DNA of 63,167 nt, filler included. It is 11 parts of 11 records of this genome, joined end to end, with 100 filler letters (N's around TTAATTAATTAA, not from the genome) between each part and the next. Parts side by side here need not be neighbours in the genome. Positions count along the whole stretch, not along the records: positions 30,607 to 39,614 come from SRR15195285_1087; 10 more parts are not named here. The stretch is one strand, 5' to 3'. Numbering within the stretch: position 1 is the first letter of the stretch; every line of letters starts with the position of its first letter. The translations under genes were made by a program, and so were the position numbers. Below are positions 3,816 to 60,592 of this stretch, piece by piece. The notes beneath the pieces are model-generated. The model did not search any database and had not been told where the DNA came from. It worked only from the letters and a program-made list of their open reading frames with translations.

Positions 3816-3915
3816 NNNNNNNNNNNNNNNNNNNNNNNNNNNNNNNNNNNNNNNNNNNNTTAATTAATTAANNNNNNNNNNNNNNNNNNNNNNNNNNNNN
3901 NNNNNNNNNNNNNNN
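3816..3915. other. Artificial contig spacer (first of ten)
   Basis: N44-TTAATTAATTAA-N44, giving stops in all six frames. Others are at 7602-7701, 11861-11960, 25645-25744, 30507-30606, 39615-39714, 44690-44789, 49754-49853, 55317-55416 and 59964-60063. Confidence 0.99.
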
Positions 3916-25493: not shown

Positions 25494-25909
25494 AGGTAAG
25501 CGACGGACGCCGGTCACAGGCGGGGTCAGAATTCAGCGGCATTCCGCGGAGTCAAAAAACCACCAATTTCGGTAGTAATGCGCAAGAAAAAGAAGTGACT
25601 CGAGGCGGTCGGAGGGGTGCACTGCAGTTCTCAGTGAGGTTTCCNNNNNNNNNNNNNNNNNNNNNNNNNNNNNNNNNNNNNNNNNNNNTTAATTAATTAA
25701 NNNNNNNNNNNNNNNNNNNNNNNNNNNNNNNNNNNNNNNNNNNNCGGAGTCCGCTGCATTTATCAGTGCGTTCTTTGTACTCCACAAGAATGCTTGCCCA
25801 TACAGTACCCGCCTGTATTGCGGCTCGGGGCGCCTCTGGTTGCAGGGCTCCTGGGCGGGGCTGCTGGGTGCTGGTGGGGGAAAGGGACGGCTGGGCCAGG
25901 AGCCATCGC

Positions 25910-30092: not shown

Positions 30093-31079
30093 CGCTGTCC
30101 GCCACGCAGTCGACCTACAGTTCGTTGGACAGGCAGGCAGCCCGAGCACCAGGACGCAGGACCAGTCAGCAGTCGCGAGGCAGCATGCACGATTCGAACG
30201 ATGCGCAGGCGGGGCGCGCTGCATGGTCGGTGGTGCGCGCGAGAGAGAGCCCTGACTCCAGACCACAAATGATGTGCGGTACTATTCATAGTACGCTGGT
30301 TCCGTTCGATTCATGATCGGGCGCGTTCGCATTCACCGAGTCCAATTTTCTATTTTGTCCGGCGCATGCAAAATAGAGTTCATCATTTGAATCCGCCAAA
30401 CGTTGTTCGATTTTAGCGACGGTGGCTCTGGGAGTGCGAAGTGGCGGGCCGAGCGTACTTCCCAGAATGGGAGACCTGACTGGCGGTCACTTACAAGTTC
30501 GTACTCNNNNNNNNNNNNNNNNNNNNNNNNNNNNNNNNNNNNNNNNNNNNTTAATTAATTAANNNNNNNNNNNNNNNNNNNNNNNNNNNNNNNNNNNNNN
30601 NNNNNNGTGCTCGTGTACGGTACGTACGACAAATGGCTCAACCTGGGCACTTCCCGACAATTTGCAGAATCGTTCGATTTATTATAAGGATATATGCATT
30701 TGCATCTACTTATGAATCATGTCGTTTGTGTGTAAATTGATATGTAATTTGTGTTTCAACGCGAGATCGAGCTCTCGCGAGGCTACGTACCGACCTTGTG
30801 CGTGTACACACGCGCGGCCCGGCGGCGGCGCGCGTACAGCGAGCGATTTCGTTGGTCCGGCGTCTCGCTCACGCGCATCGCGCTGCGCGTCAGCCCGCGG
30901 CGGTCTGCCCGACGACGGACACCGCCCCCGCCTATCTAACAGGCTATATAGAGCAGCGTCTACACGCGATACAGCAGACGGCTGTCCGTCCTGAAGTCAA
31001 ATGACCGCGGTACACGCTCCACGCTGACGCGTGCCTCGTCCGGCGTGCGGACGTGTACCGGGGCAGCACGTGTTCGGTT

Positions 31080-32146
31080 ATGGAGGGCGGCGCTGGAGCT
31101 GATAGCAGCAGTCTGCCAGTCGCGACGCGGCTGGAGTCGCTGCGCCCTCTGCTCGCGAAAAAGGCGACCTTTGTGCGCGGTGTCGGCGAGCTAAAGGCGC
31201 TCGTGCTCGAGGCGTAGCGACTCCGCTGTAGATTGCTTCTTTTCACCACTGATGAGTCGTGTATTGGAATTCTGCGCTGATTTTTAAAGTGGCGCTCAAA
31301 GTTTGTTTTCACCGGACCAGGTATGACACTGCGGAGCTTCGGCAGCAAGAGGAGATGTTCTCGCTCGTCGCGCGGGTGAAAACGTTGCTGGTCTCGCGGT
31401 ACACGTCGCCACCCGCTTGGCGTGCAGGTTGCGGGCTCTTCCTCAGTGCGATCAGTTTCATGGAGGATCCTGCGCAGCAGAAGAGTCTGCAGGAGTGGGT
31501 GCTGCTGGCCGAGAACGAGGTGCAGGAGGGTGATCTGAAAGAGCTGCATCGCGAGGCTGCAGCGCGATATGCAGCGCAGCATCCCACCAAGAATGACCGT
31601 CCACCCCTTGATCCAGCTGCACTGGCGATGCCGCAGGCAGTCGCTACTGGAGGAGCAGCTGTAGGAGGCACGGTTGAGCAGCTGCTGCCAGCTCTCCACG
31701 ATCCTGCCGGAGACCTCAACCCAGAGGAGATTGCGTCACGGCTCGGGGAGTTTCTGACAGAAGCTGGCCTCGGTGGCGCTGAGGCGCTCAGTGAAGGTAT
31801 GGCAGGTCTCGATATCAGAGGAATGATGGACATGATGATGGGAGAGGCTGAGCCTGCCGGCGCACCTCCCGCGAGTAGAGATGCCAGGGACGCGCTGCTG
31901 CTGAAGACCATTCATGCCCCTGGCCAGTCGTGTGCGATCTGTCAGGAAGATTTTGCAGTCAAGGAGAAGGCCAAGCAGCTGCCTTGTCAGCACCTGTACC
32001 ACGAGACGTGCGTACTGCAATGGCTCGAGAAGCACAATTCTTGTCCTGTGTGCCGGTTCGCGCTCGAAAGCGAGAAACAGACCTGGGATGCGGAGGCATC
32101 CAATGTGCAGAGCCGAGATGGCGCATCAACAGGCCTGTACTCGTAG
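31080..32146 (+). CDS. RING-H2 E3 ubiquitin ligase, AIP2-like
   Basis: C-terminal CAIC..LPCQHLYHETC..WL..HNSCPVCR. The N-terminal region (KKATF..RVKTLLVSRYTSPPAWRAGCGLF) resembles plant/algal AIP2. Intron 31214-31320 has a weak donor. Confidence 0.85.
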
Positions 32147-32248
32147 GCGGTGGCAAAGACGGACGCTCGAAGGTGAAAAAAAGGCGGCGGTCACCTGAGT
32201 TCAATCAAACGAAATATGATGATTCTTAGGGAAACACATCTACGTATT

Positions 32249-35200
32249 TCAGTCGCTTTCGGCCTGCTCTTCCTCGCATTCTTCTAGGATCTGGCGGTGC
32301 AAGCTGGTCTTTTGCCTCAAAAGAGGCTCCGGCCGTGACATCGGTCCAAGTAGCCACTCACTCGAGAGATCCGAGCCTTGAGCAGAGAAGTACACACCAG
32401 CTACTGATTCCTGCACATTGGGTTGGACCAAAGTTGATCCGTCCGGTAATCCTCCTGCGTCCTGCATCACTCTGGCAGCGTCGTCAGCACCGGTACCATC
32501 AGGGCCTGTGAAGTGAAAACTCTCGCGTGGAGTCGTCCCTCTTGAGTTGCCTGGAGTGCTCTCCGGCGTGCCGGACGACGGCATGTCTGAGATCTTCCTA
32601 CGGTAGGCCAACGCTTTTAGAGACTTAAGCATGAGCTTTTTGTGACCGAGGACATCCACACCAGCTTTTGCGAAGTCTGAACTCTTCGCCTGCAAGAGTC
32701 GCTCTCCAGTTAGGCAAAACTTCTCAAACTTCTCAGCATAGTACCCTGCAAGGCCGAGTTCCTCTAGCCACCGACGCACATCCCCAATCGTCCACCGAGC
32801 AACATCGATCGCGAGGTCGCCCTTGATTACATTTCGCCACCGTCCAGGTCCCAGTGCTGCACTTCCTAGCGTCGGGCGCTGTTGCTGTGTCCCGAAAGCC
32901 GAGAGAGAGCCAACAGGGCTCTTGGCCGCTGCCTGCGCTGCCGCGAGTGCCTGCGCTGCCTGTCGGGCCTCAAGCTGACGCTGACGCTGTTCCTTAGCTT
33001 CGCGCTGGACCGCTGCGTGTCGCAGCGATGCAAAGATTCGACGACAGAATTTTGGCTCTATACCGCCACCATTCGCCTCCACAGCGTCGACGAATTGCTC
33101 CGCAGTGGAGACCTGTTGGTAGCCCCCGCCCACCTCAGATGCTCCCGCGAGTTCGAAGAGGTAGACTGTCAGCTCGTGAGCATCGGAGAGCCCAATTCCA
33201 AGTCGACCTCTGAGCTCGTCACGAATCTCGAAAATTGTCATCAAACCCTCGCCCTTCACCACATCACTATCGGTGCTAATGCCGCTACCTAGATTGCTAG
33301 TGGTGGCTTGCGGATTATTTGCTCGGATCTGCATACTTTCTCCAACCTCGCCATCTTGCATCCAGTCGGACCCCATGAGCTCGTCAATCGTCCGCAACCC
33401 GTCGTTCTCATCATCTAAAATGTTGCCTTCGGCCTCGTCGTTGCTCTGTGCAAGGAGTGCCGCCTCAGCTTGCGATGCAGATATCGCTGCCTGCACCTCC
33501 TTGTTCTGCATGGCGAGTTCTCTCAGTGCAGCCCGCTCTTCAACGCTATCCATGACTGCAGGCAGGAGCACGTCGAGGACGATCTTGTCGCGTACCAAGA
33601 CGGAGTCCTCCGCAAATTCCACGGCGTCCTCAACGCAGTCCCACACCACCTCGCTCGCCATAGCCATCCGTGTACGCCTGCGCTGACGGTGTCTTCGACC
33701 ACACGCTCGTTTCTTACCAGCTTGCTTTCGGCACTGCCTTCGCAGGATGTTCCGCGCCTGAACAAATTCCGACTGTTCCCTCAGGCCAGCAAACGCTTGG
33801 AAAGTCTTCACTTCAGTGAGCATCACGAATGAAGGCTTGTCTGTCTCCTCCTCCAGACCCCAAGCAATGCTCAGCTTGAGCCAACGCATTGCTTCCTCAG
33901 GATTGCGCAGAAAGGAATAAGACTTGCACAAACCGTACGCAGTTTCTGCATGTTGTGGCCGAATCTCAAGGCAGGATTCGTAGCACGCCAGTGCTTCTGT
34001 GTAGCCTTGCTTGGTACCCCTGGCCAACGCTCGTGTGGCGTCCTCACACAGCTGTTTCCACGCAGTCTCGTCTTCCGCCGTCTCTTTTTCCCGTGCCAGT
34101 TTAATGAGATGTTCTGGTGTGGCCAGATTCTTGCGAACAGAAATTCCAGGAGTCTGCAACTGTTGCCAAATCTGCTGAAAGCGTTGCTCGTGTGCTACCA
34201 GTGTAAAAAGACCCATTACATCGATGTCGTCGCGCACATCGTCATACGTCAGCCCGATATTGACTGCGTGTTCCAGCCATTTCAAGGTAGCATCACTGTC
34301 GCCTTGGGTTGCACTGATGGCAGCAAGATTGTAAAGCACAGTTGGATCACTCGGGTGTAGCTCATGACACTTGCGGAACGCTTCAGTGGCAGCATCCCAT
34401 CGCTTGAGATATACAAATTGAAGCGCAGCTCGAAGTAGCTCGTCGAAACCCAACCCGAGAATATCTCGCACGTTAAGACCGCCCTGGACCGCAAGCGGGC
34501 CGATCAGCCTGTCGAAATCTGGCCGAGCAAGTTCAAGAACGCGAACATCCGTCGCTGCCCAGACGGAGGCATTTCGCTTGGCGTCTCGCAAGAGAGCCAG
34601 CTCGCCGAAAAATTCACCACGACGCAGGCGGTTCAACTCACCAACCGACAACGATGTCACGACACACTCTCCCTGTTCAATTATGTAGAAGCTCTCACCT
34701 GAGTCGCCCTCACGAATGATTGTATCGCCTGGCAGGTAGGTACGCAGGGTCATACCTTTTGCAAGCCACGAGCGCTTCGACGGTTCAAGACTAGTTAGAA
34801 GGGGCACCTGCGACAGGAGCCGCTCGATGTGCTCTGTGATAGATTTCTCAAAGCGACCACGTGTAAGCTCCAAGCAAACGCAGCCATCTCCTGTAGCCAA
34901 GACCGATGCCGTGCGTGGTGCGTTGTTGACCAGAGCCTGCTCTCCAAAGAACTGGCCACGGGTCAGCACCGCCACCTCCCGAAGCCCGAATTCATCCTCG
35001 ATCCAGACTCCACATTTTCCTGCCTCAACGACGAACATTGACTCGCCGACATCGCCTTGATGCATTATCTCATCTGCATCGTTGAGCTCTCGCCTTCGCA
35101 TCTGTTCAGCAAGCTGCAGCCGTTTCCCCGGTTCAAGATTGTTCAGCAATGGAACTTGTGCAAGCCACAGTTCAATTCGAGCAAGTGGACCCATCACATC

Positions 35201-38200
35201 AAGCACATGTGCGTTGAACGCGTCTCTACCAAGCTCCAGGCATTTGCAGTTGCCTTTTGCTACCACAGTTGCAGAACGCTTTGACCCATGTAGTAAAGCT
35301 GTTTCCCCGAACCAGTCACCACGGCTCTTGACAGCCACGGTCCCTACACCATCCACGTTTACATTGGCCTCGCCACTTTCGACGATGTACATTCGATCGC
35401 CGTCGTCGCCCTGCTTCATGATCACATCATTCTGACGAAACGCTTTGGAGACCATCGTCTTCGCCAGTGCAGCACGCCGATCTGCAGCGAGGCCTTCCAT
35501 TAGCGGAACCTGAGCTAGCAGCAGCTCAATCGGAGCAGTGCGTCGATCAAGATCACCTGCGACCAGCTTCATGAAGTCCTCGCGCCGAAGTTTCAAGCAC
35601 TTTGTCGACACAACGACCCCAGACTTGGTCGATCCACTCATAGAAGCAGCGAACACATTGGCTGCACGCGGCTTGTTGTTGAGAAGGGCGAGATCGCCAA
35701 AGAAATCACCTCGCCGGAGTGTCGCAAGTTGCTGGCCTGCCTGATTGGACACCATTGCTGACCCCTCGGAGACGATATACATGCAGTCTCCTGTTTCTCC
35801 TACTCTCACAATTGGTTCACCGTCAAAGAAGCTCTTTTCCTCCATTAGGGAGGCTAGCCGCATTCGCTGGTTCAGGTCCAATTTGCTTAACAAAGGCACT
35901 TGCGCAAGGAGCAGCGAAATTTGTGCAGGCCCAGCCATCTTATCGAATATCAGGTCGTTGAATGTATCTCGCTCAAGCTTGAATGCTTTGACTTCTCCAG
36001 CTGCTGAGATGGTTGCATTTCGTGGAACATCACTCAACAGCGACGCTTCGCCAAAGTATTTGCCCCTACCCAAGCGCGCAACATCACCTTTGCCTTTGAT
36101 GTTGACCACGCACTCTCCTTCTTCGATAATGTACATGGAGTCACCGATATCACCTTCCGCGATGACATTTTGGCCGTGCCTGAATGCCTGGAGCTCCAAC
36201 TTGTGTGCCAACTCAAGTCGAGCATCTTGGTCTAGTCCAGCCAATAACGGAATCTGAGACAACAAGAGTTCTACGCGTGCAGAGCTGCTGACATACTGTT
36301 CAAACGTGGTCCTTGACAGCTCGAGGCAGATAACCTCGGGACTCGTGGCGGTGATTGTTGCGCTGCGAGGTGCGTGGTCCAGTAGGGCAGTTTCACCGAA
36401 ATAATCACCCTTGTCTTTGCGTGCGACTTCGCCGATGCCATCAACGCTGACTACGCACCGGCCCTCCTCTACGATGTACATGGACTCACCCGCGTCACCC
36501 TCTTTGATGATCATATCACCAGCTGCGTATTTCCGTGACTTTGTGGCTTGTGCTAGTCGGGAGAGTTTGCCTCGATCCAGCTTACTCAGCAATGGTACCT
36601 GGACAAGCACCATCTCAATCCGAGCAACTGGTGCCAAAACTTGCACCACAATTTCATCAAACTGTTTACGTGATAGTTTCAGACACCTGCACTCCTCGAG
36701 AGCTGTGATATTCGCTGTGCGAGGAGCATCGTTCATCAGTGCTTGTTCACCGAATGCCTGTCCCTCTTCAAATTGAGCTACCTCACCAACACCTTTTACT
36801 TCAACCTTAACCGAACCTGATTCGAGTACGTACATACAGTCCCCAACCTCTCCTTGGCTGATAATTCTTTGTCCTTTGTTGTAATTTTCCGCTGTCATTT
36901 CAGCAGCCAACTGCGAGCGCTGCTTTGTCGGAATGCCGCTGAGCAGTGGGACTTGAGCTAGCACCAGCTCTGCTTGGGCATGCGGATTTTCCATGTGTCC
37001 AAACACGTGTGCGTCAAAAGCTTCTCTCGAAAGCTCCAGGCACTCAACCGTGCCTACAGCGGTGATAGTGGCAGCCCTCGGGGCGTCTGTCATCAACGCA
37101 CCCTCGCCAAACCAATCGCCCACTTTGCTCCTGCCCACTTCACCCTGTCCTTTGATCTTAACGGACACCTCACCTTTCGTAATGATGTACATTGTCTCCC
37201 CTGGATCTCCCTGAACCATGATATCTTTGCCAATGAACGTCTTCTTTACCACCACTTTGGCCAAGGACAGTCGATCCTCAAATGATAGCGGCGCTAGTAG
37301 AGGTACTTGTTCAAAGATGAAGACAGTACGAAGGGTCGGCCCAATCAGCTGATCGAAAATGTTGCGAGTGAGGGCCAAGCATCTCGTGTTGCCAATGGCA
37401 CGAATGCTGGCGTTCCGTGGTGCATCCCTCAACAGCGCCACCTCTCCGAAATAACGGCCCCTATGCAGCTGGGCGACTTTGGTGCCCTTGATGATGACGT
37501 CACACACCCCATCATCGATGATGTACATCTCACTACCGTCTTCTCCTTCTTCCATCACAAATTGTCCATCTTCGAAGTCACAAGGCCGTAACGCTGATGC
37601 GAGCTTGTCGAGCTCCAGTGCATTCAGGTGCGATAGAATTGGCATCTCAGCTAGCAAATGCTTCGCATCTCGAACCTCGTTGAGCTGTGAAATGTCAAAA
37701 TTCGGAAGATACCGGACTTGCGCGCGGCAGAAGTCGCCCAGCTTCTCAATGGTGTCGATCGCTTCGATCTTGGGCAGAATCTGTCGGTACTTCTTGCTTT
37801 TCAAGCCCAGCGAAACTACGATCTCCTGGCGTACAGCAAATAGCAACTCTTTGAATCGATGCTCCCGTTTTTGCAGCCTTTGTCTGTCTGCCTCGATCCT
37901 CGCCGCCTCAGCTTTTGCTAGTGCCTGCTCTCGTTCAAGTGCGCGTTTGCGTGCTGCTTCTTGCCGTTGTTTCTCGTATATTCCCTTCGCTGTGGTACGG
38001 AACCACTCTTCAAATTCTTGAAAGTCCATCAATCCGTCTCCATCGGCGTCGGCAGACTGCATAATTCGGGCAACTTCCAGGTCCTTTTCTTCGTCGGATA
38101 GTTTTTTCCCACCAGGAGTAAAGCTTGAGAACACCCATTCCGCAAGATTCAAAAGCTCGTCTTTGTCAAGGACGCCGTTCCCATCTGCATCCATCTGCAT

Positions 38201-39614
38201 GAACTTTTTCCGCGCCCGAGCCATCTGTTTGTCAACTGCCTTTGAGACTCGTGAATGGTGTCGTTCCAGCGCCTTCTGTTCCGTCTCACCTGCATTTTCT
38301 TGGTTTTTGGCTCGATTGACAATGTTCATCGTCGTGCCAGGAATATGCTCCACGACTTTAGCCATCAATGCCGCCCCCTGGCGAAACCAGCCCAAAGAAG
38401 AAAAAGATTCAGTTCTCCAAACCAGTCACACTCAAGAAGAAACGTTCATGTTGGAACGCACCAACTGCACTACTGGGCTATCTTGTCCGAGCTGAGAGTG
38501 TCGACCCAGTGCGAATGAGAGTACCTGCTGCGATCTGCACAGCGTGCGCACCTTCAACTCCTGAAGCTCGAGCTTATCCATCGCGTTTTGCATGCGTTTA
38601 GCACGCTTGTCTTGAGCACTCTCACTCTCATCAAGGTTCTTCTCGAGGCTCTCTGCAGCAACCCACCCGGTCTCGATTCGGATGTGCAGCTCATCATCTA
38701 CAAAACCCTGATCGAGCTCCACGACCTCATCACCCAGATGTAGCTCCGACCTCTCCTCTGAGGTAAGATCCAAAGCAGCTCGCACGATGCACGTCTCGAG
38801 CACCCGCCAGTGAGGTAGGTTTTGGACCTCCTCTTCAAAACTTGCTTCGTTCTGAAGCTCCTCACGCACGAACTGAGCCATTGCCAGCGCATTGCCATCG
38901 TCCGTCAGAAGCCGTGCTGCCTCCTGCTCACACTTGAGCTTCTCCACCTCTAGGGCCTGGATTTTCATTCGAAGGCGATCACCAGGCTTGTTTTTATCGT
39001 GCTTTGCAACGAAAGTCGTCCGCTCAATCTCTTTCAGCTGCTGCTGCAGCGTGGCAATTTGCTTGGAGATGAGACGTGCCTTGTCTGCTTCCTGCAAGGA
39101 TGAATGCGTCCTAGCTACTTTCAGCTGCTCCATACGATCTTTCACACGGGCCTGGATGCGCTGATGTCTCTTATCGGCAGCAGTCTGCTCCTCAACTTCG
39201 TGCTGCGCCACTTCCAGCAGTGCTTCTCTGCGCTCCATGCGTCCAGTGTTGTGATGAGACAGAAAGGTCCGAGTGTGCTTGCGCCGTCCTGCACCGAGCA
39301 GATGCGCCATGTTGTCGACTTTAGCAATGGCTTCCTGTGCCATCAACGCCATCAGTGGCGAGAACTCAAGAAGCGCCAAGTCCGGAAGAAATCGACCCTC
39401 CGAAGGCTCACCAACTACCCTCTCGCCAGCCAGGTATCCCTGCCACCAATCTGCAGCAGACGCGTCTGTCACGACCAGCCGTTGGCCAGGCAGCACGACA
39501 AATTCAGTACCGTCATCTGCAAACATCGTCAGATCCTTTTTGACGGTCGCAACAATGTGATTTGAATTTGTTGGCACGAACTCAATTTCTGGCTCTGGTT
39601 CCGGCTCCGGCTCC
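32249..39614 (-). CDS. Giant multi-domain protein, 5'-partial: SH3 - coiled coil - SH3-like - 2 EF-hands - 9 cyclic-nucleotide-binding domains - TPR - SAM
   Basis: ORFs 38432..39577 and 32249..38395 join via intron 38378-38551. EF loops DADGNGVLDKDE and DADGDGLMDFQE; nine (V/I/M)P(L/I)L...G...MY...FG(E/D)..L....R repeats; YNLA/YGLC TPR-like units; SAM WTIGDVRRWLEELGL...GVDVLGHKKLML. Confidence 0.9.
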
Positions 39615-40686
39615 NNNNNNNNNNNNNNNNNNNNNNNNNNNNNNNNNNNNNNNNNNNNTTAATTAATTAANNNNNNNNNNNNNNNNNNNNNNNNNNNNNN
39701 NNNNNNNNNNNNNNGTAGTGCGCACTATCCGCCAGGATCGGATCATCCGAGAAGACATCGCCGCTGGCAAGCGCTAGCAGCTGCAGTAGCGCAATCTGCT
39801 GGGGTGCTCGCATCTTCTCAGCCCGCCAGCCGACGACGTGCAGCACGTACGTCGGTACCCGACCTGCGTGGCGCCCTTTCGCGCGCGGGCGGCGCCCGCG
39901 CGCGCCGCGGCGGCCCCGCGTGGTGAGCTCGCTGCCCGCCCTCTCCCCTCTCCGGTCGCTGGGCTATCATAATGTGATTCCTGGGTCGGCGAACAAATCA
40001 TCTCGAATCCTCGATCGGGCGCTGGTTCTGCGGGTGTGCTGCTGATCACCATCCGGCGATCACGGGTGAAATGATTTCACCTCAGCAGTCACGGTACATG
40101 TAGAATTTGCGAAGGAATTCTCACACTACAGTGTGTATCCGTACACGCTGGGAACTACAGTAGGAATTCCGATGTCCGATATTTTCGTACAATTCTATGA
40201 ACCATCATTCATATATAGGAATTCCTACATTAGATCGAATAGATGTACTAGTACGGTACCCAGTACGGCAGAGCGGGTACACGCGTGAAGGCGTTGGCCA
40301 TCCAGAGCGTGGCCGGCGACGTGTGTCGCCGAGCGCCGTTGGTGCGCAGGCTAGCGTGCCTACGATACGCTGCTCGGCCAGTGCTGCTGCCGGCACTGAG
40401 CCGCACTGCTGCTGTCGCGAGGGCAGACAGTCAGTGGCGCTTCTTCCGGTGCGGTGGGCACTGAAGGACGTGGGTGTACGGAATAAGGCGGCGTCGGTGG
40501 CTGGAGGGTGGTGGCTGCGCTGCGTCGAGGAACGGAGGAGGAGAAGGGTGGACGCGCTGCGGGCGTGTGTCGGCTGTGGTGGACGCGCCTGGAACGGGTG
40601 AAGGTGCTGGGCGGTGGGCGATGGTGCCTCAACGGCAAGGGCCAGCGTCGATGCAGTAGGGCTCCCCTTGAGTGCGGCACGGCGCG

Positions 40687-43600
40687 ATGGGAGTGTGCGG
40701 CGGTGGCAGCGACCCGGATGATTTCGAGGCTGATATCCCCATGCTGCCCCGACCGACAGTGCCGGCGTGGCTCCGGCAGCTCTGCGAGGAGAGCAAGCAG
40801 AACGGTGCTCTGCAGCCAGAAGGTCCCGTCATACCCACGTGGGCGCTGGTGTTCAAGCTGAACGATCCAACGCGCGCCCACTGTGCGTGGAGAGCATCCC
40901 TGCTACCGATTCCTCCTTTCAACCTGCCCCTCTCACCACCTGCGACGCCCAGCCCGCCGCTCGATCAAGCTCCCGCTGCTCACCGTCGCATTTGTGTATG
41001 CGCAGACGACGAGCTTGGAATTGGCAAGTGCCATGAAGAGCTCGGCACGAAGAGCTCGCAAGCTCAGGATGCAGAGAAGAAGTATCAGGAAGTTCTTCGT
41101 AAAAAGAAGGAAAGACTGATTAGCAAACTGCGCGGCGACGATGCCGAAGAGAGGCGGCAGGCAATCCAGGAAGGATACGACGTGCTTTCTGACAAGTCCA
41201 AGCGCACACTCTACGATCAGGGTGGCAACGAGGCTGTGCAAGCCGGCACTGTGGACGGGATCGAAATTCGCTTTGTGTCAGAAGAGTGCCGGGTCATACT
41301 TGAGCGCGTGGTCAAGGCCGGTCTTGCGATGGAAGTATTCTTTTCTCGTGACGAAGACGAAATTTTCGTCACGCTCGGGGCTGGTGAAAGCATTCTCATG
41401 GACGAGGCTTCGCATGCCGCAGATGCCGACGGTGGTAACACTAACAGCCCCATGCAACTTCCCCTGAAGCTGAAGTACAAGAATCCAGCGGACGCCACGA
41501 CAGACGATCGTCCCAACGGTACGTGCTTAACCTGTCCTCCCTGCGGTTGCGTGCTACCGTGTGACAGCTGGCTGTCTACAAGATGCGGCACTCCTGAATG
41601 TCCTGTAACACCCTGCCTGCGTCCCATCAGGGCGTACCATGGACGGCACGTACCCATTTCACGAGCAGCTCCGTGAACATTTTACCAGAGCAGCCGAAGA
41701 CCGCTTCTTCCATTCAGGGTAACCCCTGTTTTTGCACGCAATATATGTGTCACCTCGATATCTGACAGGGCGCTGTTTGTTCAACTTGTAGTGCGCAGCA
41801 GAGGCTGCTGATGCATCGCTTTAACCGGTACTGCCGCATCACAATGGAAGAACGATTGCAAATGCCACCACGCCAGCGGTTGCTGAAAACCGCGCAGCGT
41901 TTCATTGACACGGGTACTGCGATCCAACTGTTCCGGCTGAAGCAGCTCCTTGAAAGCTATGGCTGCACACACCCAGAGTCTGCTATTGCAGACGAGGTGG
42001 CCAATCGGCTGCCAAAAGCGATGAAGAAGTTCCAGGAATGGGGGAAGGCAAACCCATCGCAACTCATTAAAGTTGCTGAGTTTGCAGAGGTCGTAAAAGA
42101 ACTTGCAGATCGGGATCGGTCACGGGACAAGCGTACGACCAGTGGATCGCTACGGGATTGCTTTCCGCTGCACTTTGACGAAGAGCTAACACAGCTTAAG
42201 TTGAGGTGGGGCTCATTTTCTTCGGGGTTTTTCATGTCATGCTGCGGTGGGTGGCTACATAAAGAAAAGGAAGGCGAGTACATCGGCTCTTTTACGGGCC
42301 GGAGATATGACAACCACTTAACACTGACGATTTTCGGCCCGCATTATCAGCCGTTGGATGAGATACGCAACTACTTCGGAGACCACGTGGCCCTGTACTT
42401 CGCATGGGCGGGACTGTACACTTCACAATTGGTTATGCCCGCTTTCCTTGGGTGTTGTACTATGGCCGGAAACTTCGTGCACGAAGGAGGCGTGGAGGAG
42501 AACCCTTTGACGCTTTACTACAGCATTTTCCTATCGCTTTGGTCTACTTCGTTCTTGGAGGCTTGGAAACGCCGCGAGAACGAGCTCAAGTTCCAGTGGG
42601 GCAGCGAGGGTTTCGAGACAACAGAGCGACCCCGTGTACAGTTCAGTGGGAAGTTTGAGGTCCATCCCTTGACGGGAGTGGAGAAGCTTGTGCATAAGTA
42701 CATTTTCCAGTACTACGGAAAGATTCTCGTCTCGAATCTGATCGGGCTGTTCATGATAGTGTTTACGAGCATAGCTGCACTGAACGCGTACCTTGTACGG
42801 GAGCTGTACAGCACGGAATATCAAAACAGCCTAATGGCTCTATACCGGAACGGCACGTCGGAGCCTGTGTGGGATGCAACCGTTGGGGCAATAGAAGGTC
42901 AGGAACGCGTACAACAAACTGAATTCAAGATTGCATCGGCAATGATCTCACTGATCGTGATCCAGACGTTTTCGCAGATATACAAACGCGTCGCCGAACG
43001 GATGACAGATTGGGAGAATCATCGTACCCAAACAGAATACGAGGACTATCTGATCGTCAAGAATTTGCTCTTCGAATTTGTCAACAACTACTTCACACTG
43101 TTCCTCATCGCGTTTCTGCTCGACCCACTCCGGAAGATCGGCGTGCCTTCCATCGCTCAGATTCTACCAAAGGTCATTCTTCCACGCGTCATAGGCAACG
43201 ACCTCAAATTTCCTGACAAGATATCCTCTTGCAACCCGGGTGCCGCCAGCTGCATGAGCACTCTGCAGCGACAGCTGCTCATCGTCTTCACTCTCAAGTC
43301 GATGATGTCTCTGGTGAAGCAGGTGGTAAAGCCATACGTGAAGCGGAAACAAAGGCTGTGGGCAGAAAATGAATCCATCAGAAAAGCTAACAGAATTCGG
43401 CCGAGCGATCGCAAGTTTCCCTACAAGATCGAAAATGAAGTTGAACGCCAAGCGATCAATGAGCCTTACGATTCGAACTTCGATGACTTTAAGGAAATGT
43501 CGCTGCAATTTGGATACGTGACGCTGTTTGCGGTCTCGTATCCGCTTGCGGCTCTGTTAGCGTGGTTGAACAACATTGTCGAACTGAGACTGGATGCTTA

Positions 43601-44689
43601 CCAGCTGTGCTCTGTTCATCAGCGGACGAAATGGCGCACACAGGAAGACATCGGGAGCTGGGCTGGTGTGTTCCAGGCACTCTCGGTCATAAATGTGATC
43701 ACCAACGCTTGTCTTATCGGCTTTGTCGGTAGCCAGCTCGCGCAAAAGGACTTCTTTGTCGAAGATCAGCCTGAACAGGAGGACCTAGGAGCCACGCAAA
43801 CATTCGTGGACCGCTTTAAAATGTGGAAAATGTGGATTGTCGTAGTGCTGGTCGAACATGCTGTGCTGATGCTCAAGTTTGGCGTGACAGCATTCAGCGC
43901 GAGCGTGCCTGAATGGATCGGTGATGCACGCGACGCAATAGCTCATAGGAAGGACAAAGACTTGCACATTGACCTGTCGAAGGTGAGTGTCACTTCAGGC
44001 GCGAAAGCTCGGGGCGTGGTTGCAAAAATGAGAGCAAATCTAAAGAAAGGAGAGGGCAGCAGCGGACTGGCTGCGGCGGTGAAAGCCTTGACACCGACGA
44101 GCTCGCCTTCTTCGAGTCCGCGAGCACGAGATGCCATGGCAGCCATGGCAGCCATGAAGCCAACGGAGTCTGCTGGGGCATCAGAACAGACCATTAATCC
44201 GTTGTCGAGCTCGCCGAGTGCACCAGTAAGCCCTTCCGGTGCATCGCAGTCGCACGTCCAATGGCAGCCACGGGCACAGCAGGCGCCAGCACAGCAGGAG
44301 CAGGTGGTAGACCGACTGCTTCCGACAGTTTCCGCAATTCCGCGAGAGACGCCTGCGCACTTTGACGGTCCAAATATCGACCTTACATTGGACCCGCGGA
44401 CACCAGTCAGAGGTCCTCCGACAGGACCCGTCGTGGAGGCAATGTGGGATTTTGAGCCTCAACAGGCAACGCAACTACGGCTTCGTAAGGGCGACCTGGT
44501 CAAAGTACTTGAGCAGACAAATGAGCACTGGACGCTAGTACAGGGACTCGGGACAGATAATATGGAAAGCAAAGGCCATGTGCCCACGTCGTACATTGCT
44601 CTCAAAGACCAGCAGGCTGCACATCCACAGATGTCTCTACAGCAACAAGGTATGCAGCAATCACAGCAGCAGCAGCAGCAGCAGCAGCA
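40687..44689 (+). CDS. Anoctamin/TMEM16 family channel or scramblase with J-like insert and C-terminal SH3, 3'-truncated in polyQ
   Basis: QPLDEIRNYFGDHVALYFAW, FLEAWKRRE, WENHRTQTEYED, FEFVNNY, DDFKEMSLQFGYVTLF..PLA..NNIVELRLDA and DIGSW; SH3 EAMWDF..QLRLRKGD..HW..GHVPTSYI. Introns 40883-41005, 41519-41630 and 41719-41791. Confidence 0.92.
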
Positions 44690-44789
44690 NNNNNNNNNNN
44701 NNNNNNNNNNNNNNNNNNNNNNNNNNNNNNNNNTTAATTAATTAANNNNNNNNNNNNNNNNNNNNNNNNNNNNNNNNNNNNNNNNNNNN

Positions 44790-48932: not shown

Positions 48933-50479
48933 TTGAAATGTTCCACGCCACGCACGCTGCGGGTCTACGAAATTGCAGTTCACAAAGACACGATCGACAT
49001 ACTAGCAAGATAATGGCACAAGCGCAACCCTAAGCCATCTCCTTACGATCGCGATGCTATACGCGCGTGAATGGATCGGTGCAACGATAATGAAACTCCC
49101 GCTGGGCGATGCCTCGCCCCTGCAGCTGGGTGCGTGCGTGCCGCCTGCTCGGCGCGACGGCGTGGCGTCCGCCGGCGTGTTATACTTAGTTCTATATTAT
49201 ACTACTGGTACGCACGCGCGTGTATGCGATAGACGGCGCCCGCGGCGCGGGAGCCCGTGGAATATCAATCATGATGCGCGCGCCATGCGCTTCAACGCGC
49301 GAACGAGAGTCGCGATGGATGAGAAGTCTTTCACGCGCAGTGCCCAGATTGTTAGAATCGTATTCAGAACTCTGGCAAATTGCATGCGCACGCAGGCCGC
49401 CGCGCGCGCATGCCCACGCGCGCGTGCACGCGCTCACGGTGTGTGGGCGCTGCCAGCCATGTGGGTGGAGCTGAGGAGGCCAGAGGGTGAGAGTTGCAGG
49501 AGGGAGCCTCTTGTAGGTGCGCGGGCACAGGTACAAGCCGGTAGAGTGGCACGCCAAGATGGACGGATGGGCGTGGCTCCACGTCGGCATTCTCTTGCTC
49601 AGTCTGTACAGCTTTCCTGGTCGCGCGTCTCGCGGCCGATAGTGGTTGTCGTCGAGCAGGCGCGCACGCACAACCCCGCCGCCCGCCCGCCCGCCTGCCC
49701 GACTGCCCACCCGAGATACCTCGGCGGTGCTGCCGCCGCCGCTGCCGCCGCCGNNNNNNNNNNNNNNNNNNNNNNNNNNNNNNNNNNNNNNNNNNNNTTA
49801 ATTAATTAANNNNNNNNNNNNNNNNNNNNNNNNNNNNNNNNNNNNNNNNNNNNCAGGCTCATGACCAAACAAGCCTGTACGGTGTGTCCACTAGATCTAG
49901 CATTCGAATACAGCTGTTTCATAATCTCTGGGTAGCGGGTATGTACCGCGGTACCCAGTGACTTACGTGTGTACTAGTACTAGATCTAGTACAGGCTACA
50001 GCTACAGATGCACACGCTGTACCAGCATGCAGGAGCGGGTAGTGGTGACTGATCGACCCCCCTGCTAGCTGGCTGCCTGCGCGCGATGCACGCCGCGGCG
50101 GCGCCGCCGCCGGTGAGGGCATGAGCTATGCGCCGGGCAGCTGCCGCCCTGGATGACTGGCTAGCACGGCCCTAGCACGAGACGATCTTGCCTACGCACG
50201 TACGACACAGGGGGGCTGTGGTGATGCGTGAGGCGTGAGCGGTGCGATGTAGTGGAGCGTGGTGAGGCGTCGTGGGACACGATGTGCGAACTCGCGGCGG
50301 CGGTGCGAACTCGCGCCGTTGCGATCGCTGGAACTTGAGAACTGAACGGGATTGAATCTGGGCGCCAAGGGTTGGGCGTGCCGAGCAGGACTGAGTGGAC
50401 TGGGCCGGGCCGGGCTGGGCTGGGCTGAGCTGGCTGGGGTGGAGTAGATGGGGGATCGAAGCTCTGCATTGGCGGTGCA

Positions 50480-53400
50480 ATGATTGGGCGGATGGACGGG
50501 CGCGTAGCCTCGCGCTCCCGTCCGCTGCGGACGACTACACGGGGCGTGCTCCTGCACGCGCTCTGTGTGTCGACAGCGGCCCAGGATGATGCATGTAAGT
50601 CATCATTTCTCATTCCGCTTCCTCTTGTTGTGCGCCCCTCGCCCGGGTGTGCGGTCTGTGGCTAATTCGCTGAGCATTGGCTCAGCCGCATGCATCAGCC
50701 TCTCGTGCTCCGTGCGACACCACAGCTGCTGTATGTGCTGCCGCTCTGACCCAGCTGTCTCCTGCGATGCACACCAGCTTGCGACGTTCTGTTAAGTGGG
50801 ATCCAGAGCGAATTGTCGGCTGGCGGGAGGTGTGAAGCTACCTGCCAGGGGCCATGCGTTTCGCAAATTCTCGATTACTTGACAAACTGCGAGGGCGTAC
50901 CTGAGCACAACACCGATACCGGCCAAATGCGCACGTTCATGGATGATTGTCTAGGTACGTGCACCGCCACTGCTCGATAGCCAGCATTTGTTGCTTTGAG
51001 GGGCTGCTCGCTCTGCTACCGACCTGTGGTTGGCTCAGATTTCGCTCGCTGTATCGTGCGCAGTGGTTGACGGCTGTATGACTCCCGGCTACTCAAACTA
51101 CGACATCAATGCAAATTGCATCTTAGCCTCGTGCAGCGCGAACGCCTGCCAAGGTAGTTAGCCAGCACGTCCTTCTCTCATATCAGCATTGTGTACGTGG
51201 CACCTGCATGACGTGCTGACTCGTCGGTGCCTCTGACTGTCGCAGACCTCCACCCTCCTGAGCTGACACTGGTTGGAGATGCAGAAGTTTCTATGCAACA
51301 GGAATGTGGACGGTCGTTTCAGATGATCGGTGATAGTTGCTCGGCGGGATCGTATTCAGACCCAGGCGCTACTGCGCAAGATGCAGTCAGTGGTGATGTG
51401 ACGAATTCCATCACAGTCGACCGTACAGTCGACCTGACAATAGCTGGGGTGCAGCAATTGACGTACACAGCGCGCGACGAGGCAGGGCTGACGGCGAGCA
51501 TCATCCGTGTTATCACAGTGGTCGGTGTCGGTTGCATGGATAGCGCGTGCGCGGCCTTTTTTGTTGTTGCTCTGTGTGGTTTCTGCCGTGTGTCATTTCT
51601 CGATACCTTTCCTGCAATACTGGCTTAGTCGTTGCGTGCTCTGTGCGCAGCATGTTCAATTACGACTACGAAGCGACAGACCAAGGCGACGCCCAATGCG
51701 TCCCCTTTTCATTCGGTTGCACCGAGACCCTGGCTCACAACTACGACCGTTCTGCAAATAGTGGTCATTGCAGATTCGGAGATAGCTGCACAGGAGTGGA
51801 AGTGACTGCTGCAGTAGTCGACTCAGACGCATACCCAAACCTGCAGTTCAGCTATCCGAATATCGATGCCTGGTGCATTTGTGCAGATGGCTTCTCTGGC
51901 AACTACTGTGATGTGAATATCGATGGCTGCGCAGACAGCCCTTGTCAGAACGGAGGTGCATGTCATGACAGCACACCAGGCTACTTCTGTGATTGTTCAC
52001 AGACCGATTATCGAGGTGCCACTTGTGAGATGCCTGCTGAAGCGTGCCTTGACCAAGTGTCACCATGTGGCTCCGGATCAGCCACGTGTAAAAAGGTTCC
52101 TGGCGAGAGCACAATCGATTGCGTGTGTCCATTCGGGCAAGCTTATGATGCGAATGTCGAAGACTGCGCGGTTGTCGATGAATGCGCGAGCTCACCGTGC
52201 TTGAATGGTGGAACATGCGTGGACCAGATTGGGACCTATCGATGCTGGTGCGTGGATGGGTTTTGGGGCATGCGATGCGGCTTGAGTACTGCTGGTTGCG
52301 GCCAAGAGTCCTGCGCGGCAAAGATTGCAGGCTGCCTTGATCCCACCATGTACACTTACGATGCGTCGGCAAATGACCATACCGAGGACCTGTGCGAAGA
52401 GGTCGTGTACGGTTGCACAGACAGAAGCATGTTCAACTGGGATGAAAATGCGAACACTCTCGACGGCACGTGCGTGCCCTTTGCATTTGGCTGTACGGAT
52501 CCAGAAGCCATCAACTATGATCGCAATGCCAACTGTGCCTCTGAAATTGACCCCCCGAACAACTGTGACAACACTGCTAGTGTCTGTGAGGCCCGTGTTT
52601 ATGGATGCACAGATCAGACGATGTCGAACTTCGATCCAACTGCCAATGTTGATGACGGCAGTTGCCAATCTTTCATGTATGGTTGTATGGATACACGCGC
52701 TACTAACTTTGATCAATCAGCGAACGAAGATGACGGTAGCTGTGTGATAAGGGGCTGCACCTACACGATGGCTGTAAACTACGAAGAATATGCGAACGAA
52801 AATGACGGTTCATGCGAGGTGAATGGGTGCACGAACGTGCGGGCAAACAACTATCTCGAGATTGCCACCAACGACGACGGTTCGTGCATTGTCAATGGCT
52901 GCACCGACTATCTTGCAGTGAACTATAACTATCACGCAACACTAGCAAATCCAGACGCTGCAGAGTGCGAAGGTATGCGTCTAGGTTGTATCGATGATCC
53001 TACGGCGTCGAACTATAACTCGTTGGCCAATGTCCACGATGGCTTTTGTGTTGGGGCTTGCATCAATGACTATCAATGGCTCGATTCCGACGGACAGGGG
53101 TGTGCGAGCTATTATCTCGGTTACTGTGGATTTGAGGATTCCATCACACGCTGCCCGAGCGTGTGTGGAAAATGCGACACAGATGTCCGGCCAGGATGTG
53201 ATAGCATTGCTGGAAGCGTACTGCAGCTAGACACGTGTGGTGTCTGTGACGGATCAGGCACTGATTGCAACTTTCAACATGCCACTCAAGCAGAACGGTG
53301 CCAAGCTGCGGCTACCCAGGTTTGCGAAAGAAATCTCATCATCAACTCGGAACTCAGGTTCGAAAACACTGCAGCGTGTCAGCAGCGCATTGCTCAGCTA

Positions 53401-55316
53401 GGCGGGCGCATAATTCTACGAGAGATACTGCTTGCTGCCACCGATTGTGGACAGACGATCGCGGCCTGGCAAGTGAACGGATACTCAGGACTGCGAGACT
53501 GTGTGACAGCCCAGACAGACTGCATTCCACAAAACGCGCAGACACGCCTAGACCACACATGCAAGCAGACAGTGCAAACTTTGGATGCCAGTACTTGGCA
53601 AGAAATGTGCCCTGGCGTCAGTCGGACGGGCATTGTCTGTGATTCCGCAACATCCGGGTACTCAGTATACGATGCGTCCATGCCCGACAGTGCCGGCACG
53701 TTCACCGCCAACGTTGCCCAGGCCCTTGCAAACGGAATGTTTAGTGATGGAGTAACGATGGGAGACTGTGCTGCCACTTGCGTTCACGACATGGTTCAGA
53801 CAACTACAGCGGCTTGGTCATGGCATAGCGTCGGCAAATGCTGGATGGTTGCTGACAGCAGTCATGATTGCCTGAACACCGATATAGTGGCACTTGCAAA
53901 CATGGCCGCGGATGGGCTGTGCCCGACTCGTGTACAGGACGTGTTAAAACCAATTGCATTCTTGAGCGCACCTTCAAATATAAAGCAGTACTCGACGGCT
54001 GCTCAGGAGCCAAATCCGACTGCGCTCGAAGAAATTGCAGCTCCGAGCAGTTTGATTGGCGGTGAATGGCTGCGCAACCCAGAGACATTTGATGCGGCAG
54101 GCGTCGTTGACGTTGCTACAGTAGACGTTGTCTCGGGCGTGAGTCATTACGCTTGGCAAATCGAGGACTCAGCGTCGTCCGCATCAGCAGCTCAAGATCG
54201 CCCTGCTGGTGGTAAGGCAGCATACTACAAAGCCATTACGACCAAAGAACGTGAGACGGCGCTGTCATGTGGATGGTCAGTGCATGCGTCACTGCGAATA
54301 GTCTCTTGTGCGCAAGCGTCTGTAATGATCTTAGTGAACTTTGATAACGCTAGAGTGTGGCGTTTTTGGCTTTGCGTCAACGGGGATTTAAACGTTGTCG
54401 TTGAAACATTTGGGCACGATGATATTGTGCTCACTTCGGACGGCGAAGGGACAGTGAATTACCACAGTTACATGTTCACTTACAATCCTGCAAGCGCAGA
54501 TGGGGTTATAATTTCTTTTGATGACGTCGAGATCAACGCAGCTTCACCGATTGCGTCCCAAGGCTTCAGTAGCAGTGATCAGACTGCCAACACTGTCCAA
54601 TGGGGAACTGGGTCTACGTCTGGCAGGGCTGCTGCAAATTTTGAGCTGATCGAGTGGCAGCTTCTTGACCTTCCCTGCCTGACGTCGTTTAGCACATACG
54701 AAGGCTGTATGGATGCACGGTACACTAATTTCGACAGCAATGCAGCTATGCAGAATGGCCCTGACTCCTGTGTCGACTCTGATCCACCAATTATTGAAAT
54801 CGGAGAAACTAGCGTTGATGTTGTACAGTTTTCCACATATGAGTTTGCTACGGCTACTGCAATAGATGATGTGGATGGTGACGTGAGCTCACAGGTCCAA
54901 CGGGAAGGATCAGTAGATACCAATGTCGCTGGACTGTATGCCGTTACGTACACAGTGACAGATGCTGCAGGCAATGCGCAGAGAGTATCGCTCACAGTGA
55001 CAGTCACTGAGTTTGATGAATGCGCCAGCAACCCCTGCCGTCTCGAGAGTGGGAATGCACTTTCGTGCAGTCAGTCTGATTCACAGAGCTATACTCCCAA
55101 AGCCGAGCAGCGTTTTGTGTGCAGCTGCGCAGCAGGTTGGCGAGGAGACACGTGCAGCAATGACGTCGATGAATGTGAAACGGATCCTTGTTTGAACGGC
55201 GGTGCCTGTGTGGACTCTAGTGACGATCAAGAAGTTGAGATTGGAGAGTTTGAATGTGTTTGCGACGCTGGATTCACAGGTACCACCTGTGAAGTTGATG
55301 TCAATGAATGTGCCTC
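50480..55316 (+). CDS. Large secreted/surface protein, 3'-truncated: Ca-binding EGF repeats, GCxD..A.N(Y/F)D..A..DDGSC repeats, two DUF5011-like Ig domains and a CBM40-like lectin domain
   Basis: Four short exons splice (donors near 50595, 50955, 51154 and 51547) into ORF 51547..55316. EGF DECASSPCLNGGTCVD..YRCWC..G..G..C; about ten GC(T/M/L)D repeats; PPELTLVG..DPGATAQDAVSGDVT..TYTARDEAG and PPIIEIG..ATAIDDVDGDVS..YTVTDAAGN. The start is ATG 50480 or 50492. Confidence 0.85.
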
Positions 55317-55416
55317 NNNNNNNNNNNNNNNNNNNNNNNNNNNNNNNNNNNNNNNNNNNNTTAATTAATTAANNNNNNNNNNNNNNNNNNNNNNNNNNNN
55401 NNNNNNNNNNNNNNNN

Positions 55417-59694: not shown

Positions 59695-60592
59695 CCTTGA
59701 CTCTCGCTTCCAGTTTCCCCCGCCGCGTCTGATGGAAACTTCTCTCTTGTGTCAGCGAGAGAACCCTCCTGCAACTGCAAGGAAGTAGTGCAAGGCTTCG
59801 CCCAGCAAGCACGGAGCGCCAGCACCGCCCGTGCAGTCGGTCCCGCGGCGACGCGCGCACGCGCGCGTGTGCGCCGCCCGGCGCGAACACACACTGAACC
59901 CACACACCCAGCAGACCCATGCCTGCATGCCACTCAGGACCCGATGTGCCCGTCCCGACCGGGNNNNNNNNNNNNNNNNNNNNNNNNNNNNNNNNNNNNN
60001 NNNNNNNTTAATTAATTAANNNNNNNNNNNNNNNNNNNNNNNNNNNNNNNNNNNNNNNNNNNNTCGAAGACCGGATCGTTGCTGCGGCGCCCTATCTAGG
60101 ATATATAGCCTGGCTGGCGGCCGGGTCTGTCTGGCGGCCCGGCGGCGGGGGGGGCGTACGACTACGTAGCTAGTGGTGGGCGCGTGGCGTGGTGGTTTCT
60201 TCGTGTTTAACCCGCGCGGGTGTTGAACAGGCTGCTACTATAGTAGCGTGTACACGCGGTGGGCGTGCTTTCTACAGAGTACATTCGCGTAGCTCGATCG
60301 GGAGCATTGCCGTTTGCCCTATCTTTCCGTACTAGCTACAAGCCGATTCTCGCGCGGATGTGACGGCTAACAGCACCTCGTCTTGCTCAGCCTGTCGACG
60401 TCAGGGTTCATGATGCGCTCCCCGATGCGATGCGGCGGCGGGGAAGCAGCCCAGCAGAGAATCGTGTTCCATCTGACATTCGACCGATCGCCGGCCGTGG
60501 TGGAAGCCGTTCAGCACGGGGCGAGCTACAGTAGCTAGTGGAGTAGCAACGCAGACGCTGCTGGCGATCTCACAACACGAAGCGGTTTCTTT

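Follow-up and report, generated by a model that had tools for sequence, protein, structure and literature searches.

What might a giant predicted protein do with nine cyclic-nucleotide-binding (CNB) domains and, in its visible part, neither an enzyme nor a channel for them to regulate? This question is raised by a gene on the minus strand at 32249..39614 of a window of 63,167 nucleotides (nt), the whole stretch of DNA that was analysed, in which 11 contigs are joined end to end. The gene lies on the contig at 30607-39614 (9,008 bases), which cuts off its 5' end, and its visible part comprises two open reading frames (ORFs) in the same frame and a putative intron of 66 nt. Our preferred reading, to which we assign a probability of about one in two, is that the product is a non-enzymatic, multivalent scaffold that senses Ca2+ and cyclic nucleotides. 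That it is a protein of more than 2,400 residues, specified by one nuclear gene of a picozoan, we hold with evenly balanced confidence.

The CNB array is encoded by the downstream ORF (ORF B, protein P0001; 32249-38395, minus strand; 2,048 codons), in which the Pfam family cNMP_binding (PF00027) was recognized in nine stretches with an E-value of 6.3e-168 and 545.7 bits (cut-off 27.5). Delimited by the Pfam stretches, an alignment of their phosphate-binding cassettes and a domain tree, the nine domains occupy residues 242-1308 of ORF B, corresponding to positions 34472-37672 of the window, and follow one another head to tail without linkers at a spacing of 113-130 residues. All on the minus strand, they are CNB1 (37334..37672, residues 242-354, cassette FGEVALLRDAPRNAS), CNB2 (36980..37333, residues 355-472, cassette FGEGALMTDAPRAAT), CNB3 (36626..36979, residues 473-590, cassette FGEQALMNDAPRTAN), CNB4 (36281..36625, residues 591-705, cassette FGETALLDHAPRSAT), CNB5 (35927..36280, residues 706-823, cassette FGEASLLSDVPRNAT), CNB6 (35537..35926, residues 824-953, cassette FGDLALLNNKPRAAN, followed by an insertion of about 11 residues), CNB7 (35183..35536, residues 954-1071, cassette FGETALLHGSKRSAT), CNB8 (34835..35182, residues 1072-1187, cassette FGEQALVNNAPRTAS) and CNB9 (34472..34834, residues 1188-1308, cassette FGELALLRDAKRNAS). 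The first-pass annotation, made from the letters of the DNA, had placed nine such domains at about 34500-37650 with a cassette in each, and both statements are borne out. The cassette F-G-[ED]-x-[AS]-L-x4-[PK]-R-x-A is intact in 9 of 9 domains (with Asp for Glu in CNB6), and its Gly, Glu/Asp, Arg and Ala are kept in all of them, as they are in the relatives P0003, P0004, P0005 and L001. The cassette Glu, which contacts the ribose 2'-OH, and the Arg, which contacts the phosphate, are described as essential for cyclic AMP (cAMP) binding (PMC10354285); only CNB1 agrees at every position with the stricter PKA consensus of the same source. Pairwise identity among the nine domains is 33-46%, with a mean of 41%. 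The residue that follows the cassette Arg is Asn in CNB1, CNB5 and CNB9, Ala in CNB2 and CNB6, and Thr or Ser in CNB3, CNB4, CNB7 and CNB8; a Thr or Ser at this place would favour cyclic GMP (cGMP). By sequence, the closest solved relatives are the ligand-regulated CNB domains of PKG (5dyk_A, E 1.4e-41), followed by PKA-R chains (E 1e-33 to 1e-28), and a whole-protein search of the Atlas returned only bacterial clusters combining CNB and TPR at 0.78, which is a lead rather than evidence.

The array is shared with a small group of relatives. Five of them (P0003-P0007) were found at 57-83% identity, and each of those spanning the array (P0003, P0004, P0005 and the metagenome locus L001) has exactly nine cassettes. 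Scanning with Pfam revealed nine CNB domains together with EF-hand, SAM and TPR and without a kinase in the full-length P0003, P0150, P0004 and P0162, so that the architecture which the first-pass annotation suggested looking for in other proteomes does recur; these four represent two clusters at 90% identity (P0003 with P0150, and P0004 with P0162). The JGI name of P0162 is 'cGMP-dependent protein kinase', yet this protein has no kinase domain. When 47 domains of six proteins were placed in a maximum-likelihood tree, all nine positions formed monophyletic groups with support of 95-100, and identity between domains at the same position of different relatives amounted to 51-94% vs 32-55% for domains at other positions. 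As each position groups by itself, the array must have been complete before these lineages split, and all domains have been retained since. Tandem Repeats Finder detected no DNA-level tandem repeat in the contig at 30607-39614, and together with the positional groups this indicates that the array is old and not an artefact of assembly. Contigs of the DNA run X4 also tile 30984-39611 colinearly, with short gaps between the pieces, in line with the earlier opinion that mis-assembly was unlikely. Near-identical DNA occurs in 19 of the 23 listed runs, which come from 15 studies and are mostly marine or seawater metagenomes, six of the runs being RNA libraries. Of the 14 proteins matched at E <= 0.001, seven were scanned, and outside the close relatives none of these has more than four CNB stretches; these searches found no member of the nine-CNB family in another lineage.

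On the N-terminal side of the array, ORF B encodes an EF-hand pair (37994..38218, minus strand; EF-hand_7, E 4.8e-12) whose two loops of 12 residues, DADGNGVLDKDE and DADGDGLMDFQE at 38156-38191 and 38015-38050, follow the canonical pattern with Asp at position 1, Asp or Asn at positions 3 and 5 and Glu at position 12. A charged stretch (37826..37993, minus strand), delimited by sequence, separates the pair from CNB1. The upstream ORF (ORF A, protein P0002; 38432-39613, minus strand; 393 codons) matched no Pfam family at E <= 0.001, SH3 included, and was modelled with AlphaFold2 at a mean predicted local distance difference test score (pLDDT) of 62. Its residues 20-84 (module 1; 39362..39556, minus strand) form a beta-barrel of seven strands, with 10-residue blocks scoring 63-87. 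The Foldseek rows for module 1 are almost all SH3 domains, at E-values of 0.0075-0.08, none reaching 0.001, and template-modelling scores to the target of about 0.6-0.7; superposition of model residues 18-88 on the N-terminal domain of 2evr_A with VIA-align gave Z 7.8 and a root-mean-square deviation (rmsd) of 3.4 over 66 aligned residues. Judged from this model, module 1 is likely SH3-like. Residues 86-263 (38825..39358, minus strand) form long helices in the model, probably a coiled coil, and are followed by a conserved module 2 (residues 266-325; 38639..38818, minus strand), SH3b-like by sequence pattern only, which is conserved in P0005 and P0007 and resembles repeated modules of P0026 and P0027. 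The model of module 2 has a pLDDT below 50, a profile search of the PDB gave no match for it, and its link to SH3 runs only through weak Pfam SH3_3 matches in P0026 and P0027. These two environmental proteins contain many copies of the module-2-like unit, to which P0027 adds PX domains; it appears to be an SH3b-like building block, as yet unnamed, that is widespread among marine protists.

On the C-terminal side, the last 749 residues were modelled with a mean pLDDT of 57, and the features that follow lie on the minus strand. The array passes into a TPR-like helical block (block 1; 34154..34471, residues 1309-1414), recognized in the model and by TPR_14 and TPR_2 matches below their cut-offs, and then into a second TPR block (block 2; 33803..34117, residues 1427-1531) with a TPR_19 match of 30.5 bits (cut-off 25). 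All five Foldseek matches of the C-terminal model at E <= 0.001 are TPR proteins, and with VIA-align the fold of block 2 resembles the three-repeat TPR domains of Sgt2 (5lyn_B, Z 11.1) and PP5 (1a17_A, Z 10.4). According to the model and the sequence, 33446..33772 comes next as a long helix that includes a strongly basic run (RRQCRKQAGKKRACGRRHRQRRRTR). A small helical domain without a Pfam family (32921..33235, residues 1721-1825, pLDDT about 80) is highly conserved among the relatives; in the Atlas it approached EF-hand-like clusters at 0.89-0.92, a recognition below threshold and therefore a weak lead only. A SAM domain (32609..32797, residues 1867-1929) matched SAM_1 at E 5.4e-9 and 36.7 bits (cut-off 23), and VIA-align placed its fold with the SAM domains of SARM1 (6o0s_A, Z 11.5, rmsd 2.0, 74 aligned) and DGK-delta-1 (3bq7_A, Z 11.4, rmsd 1.2, 68 aligned, 32% identity), the matches also including that of Shank3. 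Directly after it, at 32588..32602, stands a basic motif, RRK[IL]S, also present in P0003, P0004, P0006, P0150 and P0162, which is by its pattern a candidate site for a basophilic kinase of the PKA/PKG type; if it were phosphorylated, a cyclic-nucleotide-binding scaffold could itself be a target of the pathway. The chain closes with an acidic tail (...EEQAESD, 32252-32290), where P0003 and P0004 have ...SAEEDD and ...AETTGEF, and with the TGA stop codon at 32249..32251. Block 2 resembles the three-repeat domains of Sgt2, PP5 and Sti1, and the tail might conceivably contact the TPR of its own chain or of another.

Apart from one detail, the modules predicted by the first-pass annotation are thus confirmed: the two canonical EF-hand loops by family match and motif, the TPR-like units and the SAM domain by both profile and fold, whereas of its two SH3-like modules the first is likely, with a modelled barrel and SH3 matches short of E 0.001, and the second is SH3b-like by sequence pattern only. 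Its statement that the roughly 2,400 visible residues contain no kinase, channel, guanine-nucleotide exchange factor (GEF) or cyclase also agrees with our Pfam searches, in which no such family appeared in ORF B at E 0.01 or in ORF A at E 1; apart from the families named above, P0001 gave no match of note.

The organism is a picozoan to judge from the EukProt labels of the relatives. The 90% cluster of P0003, a protein 82% identical to the window protein, includes a EukProt fragment labelled Picomonas judraskeda, that of P0007 includes a EukProt protein labelled Picozoa sp., and for an anoctamin encoded on the adjoining contig of the window the nearest named relatives, at 33-36% identity, are Picozoa-type EukProt entries. 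Picozoa have been described as small heterotrophic marine biflagellates with a 'jump, drag, skedaddle' motility, whose only culture was lost (PMC3608682), and their genomes as fragmentary single-cell assemblies (PMC8599508). A text search of the leading Picozoa papers found no occurrence of the term 'cyclic nucleotide'.

These features suggest how the protein might work. Cyclic AMP and/or cGMP would bind along the array of nine CNB domains, and Ca2+ would bind to the EF-hand pair. When ligand binds to PKA-R or PKG, helices shared by neighbouring CNB domains of the tandem are re-packed (PMC6726620); by analogy, ligand may re-pack the helices between neighbouring CNB domains here, so that the array would change its shape. 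Together the two messengers would alter the form of the chain, and with it how far the SH3-like, TPR and SAM modules extend or how accessible they are to partners. The coiled coil and the SAM domain may tie the protein into a larger assembly, and with its nine sites each chain could also act as a local buffer of cyclic nucleotide. While the domains, their motifs and conservation and the lack of a catalytic domain in the visible part are findings of the analysis, the binding of ligand, its coupling to conformation, the partners, the self-association and the location are inferred in this proposal, which is supported by the precedents of PCR12 and CARP1, two non-catalytic CNB proteins that are compared with it below.

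Whether there is one protein at all depends on how the junction between the two ORFs is read. Both share one frame, with only ...TCT TGA GTG TGA... between them, and the TGA codons lie in a stretch of 66 nt (38378..38443, minus strand) that begins with GT and ends with a pyrimidine-rich 3' part and CAG, as a GT..AG intron would; since its length is divisible by three, removal of the stretch preserves the frame. At the equivalent point the ORFs of P0005, P0007 and L001, which are more distant relatives, are uninterrupted, and in the alignment the residues flanking the stretch are colinear with these three. Elsewhere in the gene, where the ORF of the window is continuous, L001 is interrupted by two short GT-AG introns of about 75 and 195 nt. 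Because of these colinear, uninterrupted relatives, the GT-AG ends and the short introns of L001, we read 38378-38443 as a putative short intron and ORF A and ORF B as one gene. Further in-frame GT donors are possible, at lengths of 84, 93 and 96 nt. The introns of L001 stand at about 137-215 and 335-530, compared with 38825-39300 of the window, and intron positions differ among the relatives, L001 being free of the interruption ahead of the EF-hands that is present in the window and in the lineage of P0003 and P0017. Use of TGA as a sense codon was considered and ruled out, as the 2,048 codons of ORF B contain no internal TGA and its stop is TGA.

Several observations weigh against the scaffold, or against the single protein that it presupposes. 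One RNA-library contig (X13, record 7, 38225-38633) retains the putative intron, and the RNA-library contigs (X13, X15) show no joint at 38378-38443, so that the case for one protein rests on colinearity with uninterrupted relatives; as RNA libraries may include DNA or pre-mRNA, however, the unspliced contig neither proves nor excludes an intron. Binding of cyclic nucleotides is predicted solely from motifs. Among the relatives the residue that follows the cassette Arg is variable, so that cAMP and cGMP are both candidate ligands, and CNB domains can take other ligands, as does the trypanosome PKA, which binds nucleosides (PMC10959531). The CNB domains of PCR12 are unresolved and are not known to have a regulatory role, and that precedent accordingly says little on mechanism. 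Among the 25 coding differences listed in the gene (rows outside it excluded, and 32 further differences existing beyond those listed), 13 are synonymous and 12 non-synonymous, a ratio that is weak as evidence of constraint. Finally, the 5' end is lost, which leaves room for a catalytic or membrane part upstream.

The junction could alternatively separate two adjacent genes, an SH3/coiled-coil protein ending at the TGA at 38432-38434 and an EF-hand/CNB/TPR/SAM protein starting at the ATG at 38366-38368. The two in-frame TGA codons are invariant in the four runs compared, TGA also serves as the stop of the gene itself, the RNA-library contig runs unspliced across it, and gene callers began P0004 at the equivalent Met. 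P0003, on the other hand, has no Met where P0004 starts, the intergenic gap would be only 63 nt, and the uninterrupted reading through this very point in P0005, P0007 and the L001 ORF, the intron-like ends, pyrimidine-rich 3' part and length of the stretch, and the two short introns in the L001 copy of the gene all speak for a single gene; we regard two genes as quite improbable. What the lost N-terminus contains is a related matter. The contig breaks because of a hexanucleotide repeat coding for (EP)n at its edge (39587..39613, minus strand; EPEPEPEPE), where X4 reaches a depth of 412 at 39599 and has loose ends made of the same hexamer, and as had been noted at the outset ORF A is open at the edge, 39614. 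The region 39581-39614 is a low-complexity repeat at which contigs of several assemblies end at the same place, and joints in X4 from 34951 or 36149 to 39591 (side 24) were rejected as repeat artefacts of this hexamer. A kinase, cyclase, phosphodiesterase or ion channel in the missing part would make the protein an enzyme or channel with a long regulatory arm. One loose end of X4, 30 letters long, does extend ORF A by ten sense codons without a stop, and when HMMER was run with P0002 against 1.84 billion representatives, one of the 12 proteins found at E <= 0.001, P0019 (458 residues, 47% identical), reached further upstream, with about 200 residues ahead of its own EP repeat and a Met start. 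The order would also be that of CNG and HCN channels, whose catalytic-equivalent part is N-terminal of the CNB domain. In the extra residues of P0019 and of its cluster mate P0184, however, the sole Pfam match is a spurious one to the EP repeat; tblastn with P0019 matched the window only at 39101-39577 and on no other contig; a word-based search with ORF A for longer proteins found none (weak evidence in itself); and L001, which begins at residue 114 of ORF A, adds nothing upstream, so that no relative with a longer N-terminus than that of P0019 was found. Some 630 residues of SH3-like, coiled-coil and EF-hand parts already precede CNB1, and such an N-terminal enzyme or channel is, in our estimate, unlikely. 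The upstream kinase or channel that the first-pass annotation had allowed for is thus not present in the P0019 extension, while the gene's own 5' part still lies beyond the contig.

Two further explanations accept the protein as a single non-enzymatic chain and differ in what the array is for. It might mainly be a high-capacity buffer of cyclic nucleotide monophosphates (cNMPs), in which nine high-affinity sites, on a chain that the other modules would anchor somewhere, would shape local transients of cAMP or cGMP without any conformational signal. The nine intact cassettes and the lack of an effector domain would suit such a role, and a 'cAMP sponge' engineered from PKA-RI-beta CNB domains does buffer cAMP in cells (PMC2766031). 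A buffer must be abundant, however, and here each CNB domain belongs to its own positional lineage and conservation extends to the EF-hand pair, the TPR and SAM parts and the small helical domain, beyond what a mere sink would require; we consider a role chiefly as a buffer doubtful. By analogy with PCR12 of Toxoplasma gondii, the protein might instead be a structural, cytoskeleton-associated component whose CNB array would act as a spacer, either rigid or elastic, with ligand being incidental. PCR12 (9ya0_MA), which carries EF-hand and CNB domains and forms part of a cytoskeletal ring, is the fifth-best match in the PDB by sequence (E 1.7e-40), and the window protein includes a SAM domain and long, probable coiled coils. 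Yet a pure spacer would not need nine intact cassettes in every relative, and giant proteins of Eimeria resemble the window protein in their CNB domains only, at 26-29% identity, with no evidence of orthology; a mere spacer appears very doubtful to us. A scaffold that responds to both messengers remains our preferred reading.

A more daring version of this scaffold would have the nine coupled CNB domains act as a cooperative switch driven by cyclic nucleotides, a spring or ruler that, with Ca2+, gates the assembly mediated by the SAM, TPR and SH3 modules at the flagellar or feeding apparatus and so times the abrupt phases of motility. We regard it as a long shot. If it were true, this would be a second-messenger effector that acts by a large-scale change in the shape of a domain array rather than as an enzyme or channel. 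Cyclic nucleotides usually act via kinases, exchange factors and channels. Proteins that combine only CNB domains with docking modules, such as PCR12 and CARP1, form a fourth class that is little understood; nine intact sites in one conserved chain are an extreme case of it and a natural system in which to ask whether such an array is a cooperative switch, a local buffer or a structural element. Picozoa, a phylum without a culture and with a cell biology drawn from a single description, offer few lineage-specific signalling proteins to point to, and this protein is among them. It is striking in degree, for its nine sites, its rich docking set and its enigmatic phylum, and does not by itself open a long-standing question.

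The remainder of the window holds genes on the same and on other contigs. The ten linkers that join the 11 contigs, each of 100 nt and consisting of 44 N, TTAATTAATTAA and 44 N, lie at 3816-3915, 7602-7701, 11861-11960, 25645-25744, 30507-30606, 39615-39714, 44690-44789, 49754-49853, 55317-55416 and 59964-60063. Adjacency across a linker is therefore no evidence for genomic linkage, and the sequence from 39715 onward, being another contig, gives no information on the 5' end of the CNB gene. On the contig of this gene, a RING-H2 finger gene at 31256-32146 (plus strand) converges on it with 102 nt between the two stop codons, which fits a compact genome. The anoctamin mentioned above (41811-44687, plus strand; Pfam E 9.6e-113) has a C-terminal SH3 domain, its contig terminates in a poly-Gln run, and relatives at 75-78% identity also have an EF-hand pair; it is a second Ca2+-linked signalling protein with an extra docking module in the same assembly. 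An ORF of 1,274 codons at 51544-55365 (plus strand) combines a bacterial-surface Ig-like domain with EGF domains, and its product is probably a secreted or surface protein. Rfam gave no match anywhere in the window.

How far does the protein depart from known systems? With the tandem CNB domains of PKA-R and PKG it shares the cassette and the head-to-tail packing without linkers. PKG and PKA-R have two to four CNB domains, the four being those of apicomplexan PKG. Unlike PKG, the array is followed by TPR and SAM, and there is no Pkinase match C-terminal to the CNB domains; unlike PKA-R, neither ORF A nor ORF B contains RIIa (PF02197), and there are nine CNB domains instead of two. An inhibitor site of the form RRx[STAG] does not occur in residues 1-241 of ORF B ahead of CNB1. 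Likewise, Pfam detected no DEP, REM or RasGEF, the signature of Epac, in ORF A or ORF B, and there is no ion-transport domain in the roughly 630 visible residues upstream of CNB1 or in the roughly 200 extra residues of P0019. The engineered 'cAMP sponge' demonstrates that effector-free CNB domains can sequester cAMP, as may happen here; it is, however, artificial, has two domains and lacks docking modules. Exact-phrase searches of the open-access literature for five to ten, or 'multiple', CNB or cNMP domains yielded no protein with more than four, and no paper turned up in the same kind of search for the five domain names in combination; databases may nevertheless contain entries with many CNB domains.

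Closer counterparts are found among CNB proteins without an enzyme. CARP1 of Trypanosoma brucei has three predicted CNB domains and was pulled down with cAMP-agarose, with a half-maximal effective concentration (EC50) of about 30 nM (PMC10354285); in CARP1, compared here by its published description, the cassette Arg is present only in the first of the three CNB domains, in contrast to all nine in the window protein. Closer still in layout, PCR12 (TGME49_219070, PDB 9ya0 chain MA) is a protein of 2,720 residues and a subunit of the preconoidal P2 ring, whose CNB domains are unresolved and thought to be flexible (PMC12819142), and Table 1 of PMC7951837 lists its domains as 'EF, Crp, CAP_ED', with no catalytic domain among them. 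Like the window protein, PCR12 is thus a giant with EF-hand and CNB and no catalytic domain listed. Its PDB chain was matched in three stretches, whereas the window protein has nine CNB domains, and PCR12 belongs to Apicomplexa whereas the window protein belongs to Picozoa and adds the SH3-like, TPR and SAM parts. In two giants of Eimeria of about 3,000 residues (P0009 and P0010) the CNB stretches number four, and one of the two proteins also contains an EF-hand; the BLASTP comparison with Eimeria cited above was made with P0009, PCR12 itself not being compared in full. As similarity is confined to the CNB domains, these proteins are of the same kind and not of the same family. With the non-catalytic multi-CNB proteins PCR12 and CARP1 in print, the term 'undescribed scaffold' used by the first-pass annotation is too strong; the window protein is an unusual, conserved variant of such known proteins.

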